DNA of 33,479 bases. It comes from a virus (lineage: Duplodnaviria; Heunggongvirae; Uroviricota; Caudoviricetes). The notes under the pieces were generated by a model. It was not told the origin of the DNA. It searched no databases and saw only the letters and a program-made list of their open reading frames with translations. How positions within the stretch are numbered: position 1 is the first letter of the stretch; each line of letters begins with the position of its first letter. Location of the stretch: IMG/VR virus record IMGVR_UViG_2778261246_000010; one strand, written 5' to 3'. Position numbers and translations under genes: made by a program. Shown here piece by piece: positions 6,232-18,919 of this stretch.

Positions 6232-6364
6232 TCTTTGGGACTCCTGGCTGATTAAGTATGTCGATAAGGCGTTTCCATCCGTCACGTAATTTACGGGTGA
6301 TTCGTTCAAGTAAAGATTCGGAAGGGCAGCCAGCAACAGGCCACCCTGCAATGGCATATTGCAT
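6200..6364 (-). CDS. cIII: CIII, inhibitor of FtsH (stabilises CII)
   Basis: Hand translation gives [54 protein letters not shown] (54 aa), matching lambda CIII; missing from the ORF track because under 60 aa. Confidence 0.9.
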   Translation of the reverse strand: MQYAIAGWPVAGCPSESLLERITRKLRDGWKRLIDILNQPGVPKNGSNTYGYPD

Positions 6365-6436
6365 GGTGTGCTCCTTATTTATACATAACGAAAAACGCCT
6401 CGAGTGAAGCGTTATTGGTATGCGGTAACGCAGCGC

Positions 6437-15363: not shown

Positions 15364-16012
15364 TGGCAGCAAATACCGAAATATTTGGGTAGTTGGCGAT
15401 CTGCACGGATGCTACACGAACCTGATGAAAAAACTGGAGACGATAGGATTCGACACCAAAAAAGACCTGCTTATCTCGGTGGGCGATTTGGTTGATCGCG
15501 GTACAGAGAACGTCGAATGTCTGGAATTAATCACATTCCCCTGGTTCAGAGCTGTACGTGGAAACCATGAGCAAATGATGATTGATGGCTTATCAGAGCG
15601 TGGAAACGTCAATCACTGGCTGCTTAATGGCGGTGGCTGGTTCTTTAATCTCGATTACGACAAAGAAATTCTGGCTAAAGCTCTTGCCCATAAAGCAGAA
15701 GAACTTCCGTTAATCATCGAACTGGTGAGCAAAGATAAAAAATATGTTATCTGCCACGCCGATTATCCCTTTGACGAATACGAGTTTGGAAAGCCAGTTG
15801 ATCATCAGCAGGTAATCTGGAACCGCAAACGAATCAGCAACTCACAAGACGGGATCGTGAAAGAAATTAAAGGCGCGGACACGTTCATCTTTGGTCATAC
15901 GCCAGCAGTGAAACCACTCAAATTTGCCAACCAGATGTATATCGATACCGGCGCAGTGTTCTGCGGAAATCTCACATTGATTCAGGTACAGGGAGAAGGC
16001 GCGTGGGCATAA
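15347..16012 (+). CDS. ninI: NinI Ser/Thr protein phosphatase (lambda PPase type)
   Basis: GDLHG and GNHE metallophosphatase motifs; colinear with lambda orf221. Confidence 0.9.
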
Positions 16013-16491
16013 GAGAACTAAACCTCACCAAAGAACAGCATGAGTGGCTGAATGGCTGGCTTGAACTGTGGGGCGCATGGGTTTATTCAGGTCGTCTGGA
16101 AAAGCGTATGAGCAGCGTAATAGCGAAGTTCATGGAGAGCGTAGAGCCGGGAAGAGTTATGACAAGGCCAATGTGCAATGATGATGATGGAATGTTGATT
16201 TCTCAGGTCGTCGATTCCGTCATGTGCATTGACAAGAAAGCCTTTGGCATCCTCCTCAGCTACTACGCTCATGGTTCTTCCAAGCACGCCATTGCATCTT
16301 ACTATCATCGCGTCGCAAGACCTCGCAAGATGTTATGCCGTGGCGGCGGGCGCATTCAAAAACCATCGCTCGCAACCTGTCGACGGGAAGTTGACGAAAT
16401 CCTTAATGCCTCGTTGTTTATGATTTGCCCGGTTCTGGATAGTGCGTTTAAAAACCGGAAACGTGTAGAGAAAATTAAACATGTAGCATAG
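16003..16491 (+). CDS. Q: Late antiterminator Q (non-lambda family)
   Basis: Position after ninI and before the late promoter; features shared with the Q-antiterminator family (WGAW, DDD, YY); GTG start overlapping the ninI stop. Confidence 0.65.
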
Positions 16492-16494
16492 AAC

Positions 16495-16581
16495 GTGTTG
16501 ACATCATTGAGCAAATGAGCAACACTATTCGCATAAGCTGCCGTTAGTGACTCTTAAGTTGCAACGGTGGCTTTTTTATTT
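16495..16581 (+). promoter_or_regulatory. Candidate late promoter pR' / qut with short terminator tR'
   Basis: TTGACA at 16498 shortly after Q; GGC-TTTTTTATTT tract at 16569-16580 just before the tRNA genes. Confidence 0.35.
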
Positions 16582-16656
16582 GGGTCAGTCGTATAAAGGT
16601 CATTACGGAAGGCTGTTAACCTTCTTATCGTGGTTCGAGTCCACGCTGTCCCGCCA
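16582..16656 (+). tRNA. tRNA-like gene, anticodon GTT (Asn); acceptor and D stems imperfect
   Basis: Hand-folded cloverleaf: anticodon stem GAAGG/CCTTC with loop CTGTTAA, T-arm CGTGG-TTCGAGT-CCACG, 3-prime CCA; one acceptor-stem mismatch. Confidence 0.5.
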
Positions 16657-16661
16657 AATAT

Positions 16662-16737
16662 GCTGGTTTAGCTCCAATGGTAGAGCAGTCGCCTTGTAAG
16701 CGAATGGGTAGCGGTTCAAGTCCGTTAACCAGCACCA
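16662..16737 (+). tRNA. tRNA, anticodon TGT (Thr)
   Basis: Perfect 7-bp acceptor stem GCTGGTT/AACCAGC, D-arm GCTC-CAATGGTA-GAGC, anticodon loop CTTGTAA, T-loop TTCAAGT, 3-prime ACCA. Confidence 0.7.
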
Positions 16738-16855
16738 TAACTGAGCCGTAGCCACTGGCTATCCTGAACTCATCAGTGATAGTTATGCCGCGGCCTTCTT
16801 TTTTCCCCTTCCCAATATAAGAACTACGCAATCCGTTACTTGCGGAGGCGTTGCT

Positions 16856-17071
16856 ATGAAATCAATGGACAAAATCTCTACTGGCATTGCCTACGGAACA
16901 TCCGCTGGTAGTGCGGGATACTGGTTTTTACAGTGGTTGGATCAGGTCAGTCCGTCACAGTGGGCTGCAATTGGTGTGCTGGGAAGTCTAGTTCTGGGCT
17001 TTTTGACTTATCTGACAAATCTGTACTTCAAAATCAGAGAAGACAGAAGAAAGGCTGCGAGAGGTGAATAA
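16856..17071 (+). CDS. S: Class II holin / pinholin (phage 21 S-type) with dual-start motif
   Basis: 71-aa, two TM segments, MKSM dual-start motif; matches my recollection of the S21 pinholin. Confidence 0.9.
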
Positions 17072-17568
17072 TGCCTCCGTCATTACGAAAAGCTGTTGCA
17101 GCTGCTATTGGTGGCGGGGCTATTGCTATAGCATCAGTGTTAATCACTGGTCCAGGTGGTAACGATGGTCTGGAAGGTGTCAGCTACATACCATACAAAG
17201 ATATCGTTGGCGTATGGACTGTATGTCACGGGCATACAGGAAAAGACATCATTCCCGGTAAAACGTATACCGAAGCAGAATGCAAAGCCCTCCTGAATAA
17301 AGACCTTGCCACGGTAGCCAGACAAATTAACCCGTACATCAAAGTCGATATACCGGAAACAACGCGCGGCGCTCTTTACTCATTCGTTTACAACGTGGGT
17401 GCTGGCAATTTCAGAACATCGACGCTTCTGCGCAAAATCAACCAGGGCGATATCAAAGGCGCATGTGATCAGCTACGTCGCTGGACATACGCTGGCGGTA
17501 AGCAATGGAAAGGTCTGATGACTCGTCGTGAGATTGAGCGTGAAGTCTGTTTGTGGGGGCAACAATGA
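17071..17568 (+). CDS. R: SAR endolysin (phage 21 R-type lysozyme)
   Basis: Gly/Ala-rich N-terminal signal-anchor-release segment followed by a lysozyme domain; start overlaps the holin stop. Confidence 0.9.
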
Positions 17569-17660
17569 GCATGATTTGCTTTTTCATGGCAGCGTTGCTC
17601 GCATTCAATGGCAACGATGCGTGGCCGTGGTTTCTGGCCGTTGGAGTGTTGATGTCATGA
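17565..17660 (+). CDS. Possible 31-aa hydrophobic peptide between endolysin and the Rz-like start
   Basis: Hand-translated [31 protein letters not shown]; ATGA overlaps at both ends. Confidence 0.3.
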
Positions 17661-17806
17661 GTCGGTTAACCGCGATTATCTCCGCTCTGGTTATCTGCAT
17701 CATCGTCTGCCTGGCGTGTGGCGGCGCATTTTCTGGTGTCGTTCATTGTCGGCGTACTGGGCGCAGAGGTTCTGGCATCCTGGCTGGTAAAGCATACAGG
17801 GTTTGA
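17657..17806 (+). CDS. Rz-like i-spanin N-terminal fragment (49 aa), diverging after the TM segment
   Basis: [19 protein letters not shown] matches the lambda Rz N-terminus, then the frame diverges and stops; no embedded Rz1-like lipoprotein found. Confidence 0.35.
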   Translation: MSRLTAIISALVICIIVCLACGGAFSGVVHCRRTGRRGSGILAGKAYRV

Positions 17807-17943
17807 CGGTGCTCCCGTCGACGCACTGTGTGCAGTGCTGGTGTCAGTGGTGTCGGTGAAGATTCTCTCGTTCATCCACCAGCAGGATATTGCATCGCTG
17901 GTGTCCGGTGTGTTCTCCCGCCAGCGAGGCGGAGGAGGCGGTA

Positions 17944-18219
17944 ATGTTAAGTAACCTTCCCGGATTGCTGAATGTGGCGTTATGCACGGTTATCGTGCTG
18001 ACGCTCTTTTTTTATCGTCGTCGCGATTCCAGGCATAAACCGCTGATGTCATGGCTGGCCTGGCTGCTGATGCTGCTGTATGCCTTTGCGCCTCTCAGCT
18101 ATCTGTGTGGTTGCCCGTTAGCAACGGGCTGGCTGGATGTGTTTTTTAATCTGCTGTTCTGCGTGCTGGTGATACGCGCACGCGGGAACGTCACAAGAAT
18201 CTTTCCATTGTTGAGGTGA
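17944..18219 (+). CDS. Small membrane protein (91 aa, about 3 TM segments); holin-like candidate
   Basis: Strong GGAGGAGG Shine-Dalgarno 7 nt upstream; three hydrophobic stretches; immediately upstream of the M15 peptidase gene. Confidence 0.55.
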   Translation: MLSNLPGLLNVALCTVIVLTLFFYRRRDSRHKPLMSWLAWLLMLLYAFAPLSYLCGCPLATGWLDVFFNLLFCVLVIRARGNVTRIFPLLR

Positions 18220-18221
18220 AT

Positions 18222-18599
18222 ATGTCGGGTAAATTCAGATTCAGCCGCCGGAGCGAGAAAAATCTGGAAGGCGTCAAACCACAGCTGGTTGCTGTAGTTC
18301 GCCGCGCCCTTGAACTGTCGGAGGTTGATTTCGGTATTACGGAAGGCCTGCGCACGAAAGAACGCCAGAAACAGCTGGTTGCAGAAGGCAAGAGCCAGAC
18401 CATGAACAGCCGCCACCTGACCGGTGATGCGGTGGATGTTGTGGCCTGGGTTGGCAGCCAGGTGTCATGGGACTGGCCTCTGTACGAGAAAATCGCGCAG
18501 GCATTTAAGCAGGCTGCCGCAGAGCTGGGAACTGCCATCGAATGGGGCGGGGACTGGAAAACGCTGAAAGACGGACCTCACTTTCAGTTGAAGCGTTGA
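18222..18599 (+). CDS. Peptidase M15-family zinc peptidase (VanY-like; candidate second endolysin)
   Basis: SxHxxGxAxD motif present as SRHLTGDAVD plus a downstream His; start 2 nt after the preceding stop. Confidence 0.75.
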   Translation: MSGKFRFSRRSEKNLEGVKPQLVAVVRRALELSEVDFGITEGLRTKERQKQLVAEGKSQTMNSRHLTGDAVDVVAWVGSQVSWDWPLYEKIAQAFKQAAAELGTAIEWGGDWKTLKDGPHFQLKR

Positions 18600-18613
18600 T
18601 AATCAGGTGGGTT

Positions 18614-18796
18614 ATGAGCAGAAAACACTGGACACACAGAATGCCGCGAACGACGGCGAAATGGGCACTGGTAGCGATACTGGTGCCTTTTTTATTGGCG
18701 GGATGCGTCAGCCTGGATAGGGCGCGTCAGCTTTTGGATGCTGCCTCTCAGGTCTGTGAAATTGTCAATGGTGTCCGACAGTGTATGCATAACTGA
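18614..18796 (+). CDS. Small lipoprotein (60-aa precursor, lipobox LLAGC)
   Basis: AGGTGGG Shine-Dalgarno; signal peptide MSRKHWTHRMPRTTAKWALVAILVPFLLAG then Cys; about 30-aa mature part with 3 further Cys; not proline-rich like Rz1. Confidence 0.6.
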   Translation: MSRKHWTHRMPRTTAKWALVAILVPFLLAGCVSLDRARQLLDAASQVCEIVNGVRQCMHN

Positions 18797-18919
18797 ACGA
18801 CTGAAATGGCAGAATATTTTGCTGAAAAATGAAGGGGTGTCCGCGTCCGGAAAGCATGAAATTCTGCTGCGTGTACCAATTTTATCTTATTCATTCTAAA
18901 TCTTGCCGAATCAAGCAAC

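Follow-up and report, generated by a model that had tools for sequence, protein, structure and literature searches.

The window, that is the whole 33,479-nt stretch of prophage DNA analyzed here, contains exactly two tRNA genes as determined with ARAGORN, a tRNA-Asn with the anticodon GTT followed by a tRNA-Thr with the anticodon TGT. Both are located downstream of a gene encoding a Q antiterminator and upstream of the lysis genes, and the first base of tRNA-Asn is the base immediately after the T-tract of the late leader terminator tR'. The features of the region are as follows.

16003-16491, + strand: Q antiterminator gene of the phage 21 type, 162 aa (Pfam PF06530 Phage_antitermQ, 87.2 bits; 99% amino acid identity to Q of phage 21; annotated in RM10740 as antiterminator Q family protein)
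16498-16540, + strand: late promoter pR' with Q-loading signals (same sequence as the features of phage 21 OL657228.1, coordinates transferred by alignment)
16498-16503, + strand: -35 element of pR', TTGACA (phage 21 alignment)
16506-16521, + strand: Q-binding element (QBE) ATTGAGCA/AATGAGCA, in tandem between -35 and -10 (phage 21 alignment)
16521-16526, + strand: -10 element of pR' (phage 21 alignment)
16533, + strand: start site of pR' (phage 21 alignment)
16534-16540, + strand: sigma-dependent pause element (phage 21 alignment)
16535-16581, + strand: intrinsic terminator tR', with the hairpin at 16535-16573 and the T-tract TTTTTTATTT at 16572-16581 (annotated in phage 21 and Sf6)
16582-16656, + strand: tRNA-Asn, anticodon GTT (ARAGORN; Rfam RF00005), CCA encoded, discriminator G73
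16657-16661, + strand: intergenic spacer of 5 nt, AATAT (sequence; AATAT or AACAT among relatives)
16662-16737, + strand: tRNA-Thr, anticodon TGT (ARAGORN; Rfam RF00005), CCA encoded, G1-C72, C2-G71, A73
16745-16803, + strand: hairpin (16745-16794) conserved with the tRNA module, then CUUCUUUUUU; putative terminator-like or processing element (fold of -23.4 kcal/mol, z -4.17)
16856-17071, + strand: S21 pinholin/antiholin gene with the dual start Met1/Met4, the late operon's first protein-coding gene (Pfam PF04971 'Bacteriophage P21 holin S', 122 bits; S21-71/S21-68 in phage 21)
17071-17568, + strand: R21-type SAR endolysin (lysozyme) gene (Pfam Phage_lysozyme, 156 bits; SAR endolysin in phage 21, RrrD in RM10740)

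The assignments of pR' and tR' are based on the GenBank annotation of phage 21 (OL657228.1, which cites PMID 1704887) together with folding. The tR' hairpin folds at -20.2 kcal/mol (z -4.77), a stability attained by 0 of 200 shuffled sequences, and is followed by UUUUUUAUUU. A scan of 16300-17100 for consensus promoters and terminators returned no promoter-like site and also missed pR' and tR' themselves, because the -10 element is poor and the terminator stem is interrupted and has a long loop. The Q21-family protein, the tandem QBEs, the pause element and the downstream terminator are all present, and the region is predicted to be a Q-dependent late unit of the phage 21 type. The results from Pfam, the phage 21 alignment and folding are in agreement with the sequence-only reading, which had located the tRNA genes immediately past tR', in the interval from Q to the lysis genes.

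Structure of the tRNA genes

Both genes were matched over the full length of the Rfam model RF00005 (model positions 1-71 of 71), with scores of 55.3 bits (E 1.8e-9) for tRNA-Asn and 61.5 bits (E 3.6e-11) for tRNA-Thr relative to a gathering score of 29. The coordinates and anticodons called by ARAGORN over the whole window are the same as those that had been obtained by folding by hand, and Rfam agrees; these results confirm the two phage-borne genes, Asn-GTT and Thr-TGT. A permissive Rfam search of 16480-16900 revealed no third or degenerate tRNA and no other RNA family beyond the two tRNAs, the one additional match being at chance level (E 9.5). An ORF on the minus strand (16625-16831) has the C-terminus ...QRGLEPR and contains NGLEPLP; both peptides are encoded by the reverse complements of the T arms, consistent with the earlier dismissal of this GLEPR-containing ORF as an artefact of the T-loop.

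The identity set of AsnRS is comprised of G34, U35, U36 and the discriminator G73, all of which are present in tRNA-Asn, with the G at 16653 followed by CCA. That of ThrRS is comprised of G1-C72, C2-G71, G35 and U36, all of which are present in tRNA-Thr. The tRNA-Thr was previously described as well formed and is indeed regular except for G27·A43. The acceptor stem of tRNA-Asn contains a U4·U69 mismatch, the D stem consists of three standard (Watson-Crick) pairs plus U13·U22, and the variable loop is 4 nt. The acceptor mismatch and the weak D stem had thus been correctly noted in the sequence-only reading, which regarded tRNA-Asn as possibly degenerate.

Distribution and conservation of the tRNA pair

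Identity over 16400-16900 is 97.8% with phage 21 (OL657228.1), 97.2% with SfI, 99.0% with phi458 and 100% with a prophage of E. coli RM10740, and the region was matched in 992 of 5426 complete E. coli genomes, approximately a fifth. The same Asn/Thr pair is annotated in Sf6 ('similar to phage 21'), SfI, JLK-2012, BTP1 and many other P22-like phages, and is described in the genome papers of SfI (PMC3636060) and phage 21 (PMC9119081). Phage L has tRNA-Asn together with Leu(UAA) instead of Thr (PMC8022706). Among the matches listed, those of full length are labeled tRNA-Asn and tRNA-Thr by PGAP/RefSeq. The pair is therefore an already known and database-annotated feature of phage 21-type late operons, and its finding matters little for this window since the NCBI pipeline already labels both genes in E. 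coli prophages with this region. What is new here is that the odd-looking pairs of tRNA-Asn are conserved traits of a phage-borne tRNA lineage rather than signs of decay.

In order to obtain relatives of tRNA-Asn, IMG/VR was scanned with patterns in which only the anticodon loop, the T arm and the 4-nt variable loop were fixed. The scan yielded 57 contigs with an identical tRNA-Asn, plus a set of relatives; the copies of phage 21 and Sf6 are also identical. Two diverged lambdoid variants (L068 and L121) have the acceptor stem GGGUAGG/CCUUCCC compared to GGGUCAG/CUGUCCC here, such that the pairs 5:68 and 6:67 are altered on both sides while U4·U69 is kept. A few contigs have U4·C69 or U4-G69. 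The U13·U22 pair is present in 19 of 19 distinct relatives, including those in large virulent phages, the 5' side being fixed by the selection pattern and the 3' side being free. In more distant relatives the D arm and variable loop are the same and 4:69 is a standard pair; many of these genes are located in arrays of 8 to 28 tRNA genes on large phage contigs, and annotated tRNA-Asn genes of T4-like myoviruses were found by BLAST among the relatives of the scaffold.

When the cloverleaf was imposed on the 19 distinct phage-type sequences, 92.5% of the cells were paired and changes on both sides were found at 15 of the 21 pairs. The covariation score was 0.634 compared to 0.183 for shuffled alignments (reached in 0 of 500), with the anticodon loop, the T loop and part of the D arm fixed by the search patterns; registers slid along the alignment scored at most 0.158 with at most 51% paired. 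In an alignment of 66 contigs tRNA-Asn was the least variable segment of the module, with a mean minor-allele fraction of 0.004. The selection of the contigs itself fixed approximately 29 of the 75 positions of tRNA-Asn, but the gene remains the least variable segment at the positions that were left free. The corresponding fractions among the 66 contigs were 0.019 for tRNA-Thr, 0.07 for the 3' flank and 0.14-0.30 for the leader and promoter. For tRNA-Thr, 15 distinct lambdoid variants that otherwise share the same body revealed compensatory changes at four acceptor-stem pairs (GCUGUUU/AAACAGC, GCCGGCU/AGCCGGC and GCCAGCU/AGCUGGC). C2-G71 and A73 were the same in every variant, and 14 of the 15 retain G1-C72. 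This pattern of substitution indicates that tRNA-Thr, too, is under selection.

A tRNA-Asn that is a decaying pseudogene, carried as a passenger beside a functional tRNA-Thr, would account for U4·U69, the D stem with just three Watson-Crick pairs and the 4-nt variable loop, and for an Rfam score below that of tRNA-Thr (55.3 compared to 61.5 bits). It would also be consistent with the absence of an Asn codon bias described below and with the folding energies, since the cloverleaf minus the non-standard pairs is at -19.1 kcal/mol and the unconstrained minimum at -21.6 kcal/mol is not a clean cloverleaf. Nonetheless, decay is very improbable given that 57 IMG/VR contigs have the identical gene, that L068 and L121 retain U4·U69 despite changes on both sides of the adjacent 5:68 and 6:67, that U13·U22 is a trait of the family in all 19 relatives (5' side fixed by the selection pattern), and that 15 of 21 pairs covary in what is the least polymorphic part of the module. 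Furthermore, CCA, G73 and GUU are intact, and tRNA-Asn is retained even where the second tRNA has been swapped, as in phage L with Asn plus Leu (PMC8022706). The suggestion of possible degeneracy was not upheld, and the apparent defects are conserved traits of a phage-borne tRNA-Asn lineage. The pair might also be the remnant of an att site, consisting of partial, duplicated and unexpressed tRNA genes left by integration, as lambdoid phages often integrate in thrW or argU with a 3' fragment of the tRNA beside int (PMC8022706, PMC3636060). The probability of such an origin is negligible: both genes are full length with four arms and CCA, they lie in the leader of the late operon, with approximately 15 kb between them and the left (excision/recombination) end, their sequences are unlike those of the host tRNAs, and their stems evolve by compensation. 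An att-site remnant was rejected on the basis of full-length genes in the wrong location.

Host tRNAs and codon use

A BLAST comparison with the host revealed a median of one copy per genome of tRNA-Thr(UGU) and four copies of tRNA-Asn. The phage and host tRNAs match at 55 of 78 aligned positions for Thr (thrU) and 48 of 78 for Asn, results which rule out recent capture of host tRNA genes. The anticodon loops CUGUUAA and CUUGUAA are the same in the phage and host tRNAs.

Codon use was compared between 51 genes of the window, with coordinates from the RM10740 annotation, and 42 chromosomal genes of the same strain. The values, in the order late genes, early genes and host sample (42 genes), were as follows.

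ACA as % of Thr codons: 21.3, 29.3, 14.6
ACA+ACG as % of Thr codons: 54.5, 49.5, 33.9
Asn codons per 1000: 37, 45, 43
AAC as % of Asn codons: 47, 49, 55

By standard wobble the UGU anticodon reads ACA and ACG, and the difference in ACA+ACG between the late genes and the host sample was significant at p = 1e-9. Neither enrichment of Asn codons nor preference for AAC was found in the window genes relative to the 42-gene host sample. The comparison of the anticodons with rare codons of the late genes, proposed in the sequence-only reading, gave a higher share of ACA+ACG for Thr (54.5% compared to 33.9%) and no enrichment for Asn. The codons AGG, CGG, AGA and CGA are enriched above ACA, and enrichment of ACA is higher in early than in late genes, so that general composition, and not adaptation to the tRNA, may be the source of the ACA bias. 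The argument from codon supply is moderate for Thr and absent for Asn. The same ACA bias and the same conclusion on supply were reported for SfI (PMC3636060).

Expression and function of the tRNA pair

Gene identity, structure, conservation, covariation, position and codon statistics were computed here, while pR', the QBE, the pause element and the terminator were shown by others for phage 21. Taken together, the two tRNAs are probably intact and functional phage genes, with which the late operon of a lambdoid prophage of the phage 21 type begins. We infer that the tRNAs are processed and charged, are expressed in dependence on Q and are of benefit to the phage, according to the following scheme. 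RNA polymerase would start at pR' (16533) and, without Q, halt at tR' (16535-16581) to yield a leader RNA of approximately 45 nt. Q21 would bind the QBE at 16506-16521 and load onto the polymerase paused at 16534-16540, after which tR' would be ignored and transcription would proceed in the order tRNA-Asn, tRNA-Thr, 3' hairpin, S21 holin, endolysin and virion genes. The tRNAs would be excised with host RNase P cutting at the 5' ends and endo- and exonucleases acting on the 3' ends, with no addition of CCA needed as it is encoded, and would be charged by the host AsnRS and ThrRS, for which the identity elements are present. The outcome would be an extra decoding capacity during late expression, plausible for the ACA and ACG codons of Thr, for which the host reader is single-copy.

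Read-through from pR' is the obvious route to the tRNAs because there is no space for a promoter between tR' and tRNA-Asn, and both are most likely expressed through Q-dependent read-through. The sequence-only reading had gone further in stating that the tRNAs would be expressed only on Q-dependent read-through; the position after the T-tract of tR' makes read-through the obvious route, although "only" is overstated. Other possible sources of tRNA transcripts are leakage at tR', N-antiterminated transcription from pR and expression in the lysogen. In the BTP1 paper the two tRNA genes are set apart when listing the genes above TPM 100 in lysogen cultures, and the lytic operon is stated to start directly after them (PMC7067206), which implies that these tRNA genes were also above TPM 100 in lysogen cultures. 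Such a signal could arise from Q-independent expression or from the fraction of cells that is spontaneously induced. The mode of tRNA expression was stated to be unknown for phage L (PMC8022706), and the tRNAs that follow tR' in Stx phages appear to have a promoter of their own (PMC7547250).

The hairpin 3' of tRNA-Thr is conserved within the tRNA module, while the T-tract is confined to the 21-type lysis context and the P22-like homology ends at CTTCT. The hairpin has no annotation in the phage 21 record. Among 38 distinct variants only one-sided changes were found, a result that provides no support from covariation either way. In the 21-type context the hairpin may act as a second, weak terminator; alternatively, it may be an element for processing or stability.

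These observations bear on two further explanations for the presence of the pair. One is that the tRNAs are a lysogenic-conversion trait expressed independently of Q in the lysogen, whereby pR' is constitutive, tR' is leaky and the element at 16745-16803 stops transcription before the holin, such that the lysogen gains extra tRNA without lysis. The hairpin between tRNA-Thr and S21, stable at -23.4 kcal/mol (z -4.2) and followed by CUUCUUUUUU, is in accord with this explanation, as are the levels above TPM 100 implied for the tRNA genes in BTP1 lysogen cultures (PMC7067206) and the short pR'-tR' transcripts made in lysogens of Stx phages (PMC7547250). Nevertheless it is unlikely, as the P22-like carriers, a group that includes BTP1, are without the T-tract after the hairpin and their homology stops at CTTCT, no compensatory changes back the hairpin, and the high spontaneous induction of BTP1 could account for the reads. 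Q-independent expression in the lysogen is possible as an addition to the Q-dependent mechanism. The other explanation is that the pair serves mainly as anti-defense spare parts which stand in for, or survive longer than, host tRNAs that anticodon nucleases or tRNase toxins have cut, with codon supply being secondary. Both tRNA bodies are strongly unlike the host tRNAs, the scaffold of tRNA-Asn belongs to a phage-borne lineage found also in T4-like phages, and with no Asn codon bias tRNA-Asn has no rationale in supply. Colicin E5 cuts the tRNAs of the queuosine family, and tRNA-Asn is a member of this target family. HepS, an anticodon nuclease of the Gifsy-1 prophage triggered by lambda-type J tail-tip proteins, cleaves tRNA-Thr(GGT) to the greatest extent, in addition to Thr(TGT) and Thr(CGT) (PMC13043305), a conflict into which a lambdoid siphovirus with its own tRNA-Thr would fit. 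This explanation is quite unlikely, however, since the anticodon loops are the same as those of the host and the known route of escape through the anticodon loop is not seen, tRNA-Thr(UGU) is itself a secondary target of HepS (PMC13043305), and a J-type tail tip is missing from the many carriers that are P22-like podoviruses. It is likewise improbable that the pair is retained chiefly as surplus or nuclease-proof tRNA, codon supply being the lesser reason, with U4·U69 and U13·U22 being part of the adaptation. If true, a lambdoid phage would complete late translation while HepS or Asn-cutting tRNases destroy the host pool.

The arrangement of tRNA genes at the start of the late operon has close counterparts in known phages. 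Phage 21 (OL657228.1; genome paper PMC9119081) has the same order of pR', QBE, start site, pause element, tR', tRNA-Asn, tRNA-Thr, S21 and SAR endolysin. The promoter, QBE, pause element, terminator hairpin and both tRNAs are identical to those of phage 21, whereas the T-tract of the window is one T shorter, the spacer is AATAT instead of AACAT and there are a few changes 3' of tRNA-Thr. The 21-type Rz/Rz1 genes break off at approximately 17713, where part of another lysis cassette takes their place, and beyond this region the prophage is a mosaic unlike phage 21. In Sf6, SfI, BTP1 and P22-like phages the tRNAs are identical or nearly so and have the same position after the late leader terminator, the shared block corresponding to 16534-16799 of the window. 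These carriers differ in having other Q alleles, promoters and lysis genes, with a lambda-type S holin in Sf6, and the P22-like carriers are missing the T-tract after the 3' hairpin. At least two unrelated classes of leader join the same tRNA-Asn at TTTTTTATTT. The tRNA-Asn genes of large virulent phages (T4-like myoviruses) share the D arm GUAU/AAAGGUYA/UUAC with U13·U22, the variable loop UUAU and the anticodon and T loops, and differ in having a standard 4:69 pair and a CCA that is usually unencoded, and in being located in arrays of 8 to 28 tRNAs rather than in the leader of a late operon. Stx-converting phages such as 933W and Sakai likewise have tRNA genes, ileZ-argN-argO, downstream of pR' and tR' and ahead of the late or lysis genes, between tR' and stx, which are thought to serve codons rare in the host. 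They differ from the window in the Ile and Arg isoacceptors, another type of Q and a pR'-tR' leader of approximately 258 nt, and a separate promoter has been mapped between tR' and the tRNAs (PMC7547250), for which the window has no room.

The hairpin 3' of the tRNA-Thr gene

Folding of the interval between the tRNA-Thr gene and the S21 holin gene revealed the following element in the window.

16745-16803: hairpin followed by CUUCUUUUUU

The hairpin has a predicted stability of -23.4 kcal/mol with a z value of -4.2 and, together with CUUCUUUUUU, looks like a terminator as judged from sequence and folding. The phage 21 record (OL657228.1) carries no annotation for this element. The hairpin moves together with the tRNA module, and the T-tract is confined to the 21-type lysis context. 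Among the variants compared, the hairpin showed no compensatory changes.

Joints and variants of the tRNA module

Among IMG/VR loci, contigs obtained by pattern scans for relatives of the two tRNAs, the same tRNA-Asn is joined to two unrelated leader/terminator classes. Both classes join it at a common TTTTTTATTT, which places the recombination joint of the mobile tRNA module within the terminator. In three IMG/VR contigs tRNA-Thr is a chimera: its 5' half is of the phage type and its 3' part resembles the host thrU. The next gene in these contigs is a third tRNA, which has the anticodon UCC (Gly) and takes the place of the 3' hairpin.

The tRNA-Asn scaffold (D arm GUAU/AAAGGUYA/UUAC and a 4-nt variable loop) is also present in tRNA-Asn of T4-like phages and, with a different anticodon, in annotated tRNA-Thr of ∼85-88 kb phages (including Felixounavirus) and ∼140-147 kb phages. 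The occurrence of one scaffold in both tRNA-Asn and tRNA-Thr of phages suggests anticodon switching inside a single phage tRNA lineage.

The cIII and lysis regions

The start of the cIII gene is overlapped by an RNA element that matched Rfam RF01804 over its full length with 88.5 bits.

6319-6377 (-): lambda cIII thermoregulator RNA element

At 17562-18800 the window has an incomplete 21-type lysis cassette, in which an intact spanin pair was not evident. The interval between endolysin and Rz contains ∼92 additional bases, and homology to phage 21 Rz stops near 17713, approximately 20 codons into the gene. A partial holin comes first after this break, and the region contains the following features.

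17944-18219: 3-TM holin, Pfam Phage_holin_3_7
18222-18599: M15 peptidase
18542-18796: 84-aa ORF with a LAGC lipobox, without any family match

In the same prophage as carried by E. coli RM10740 (locus L004), the S21 holin gene has an IS3-family insertion at its 3' end (18208-19415 of L004). The window is otherwise identical to this prophage but lacks the insertion, leaving the holin intact.
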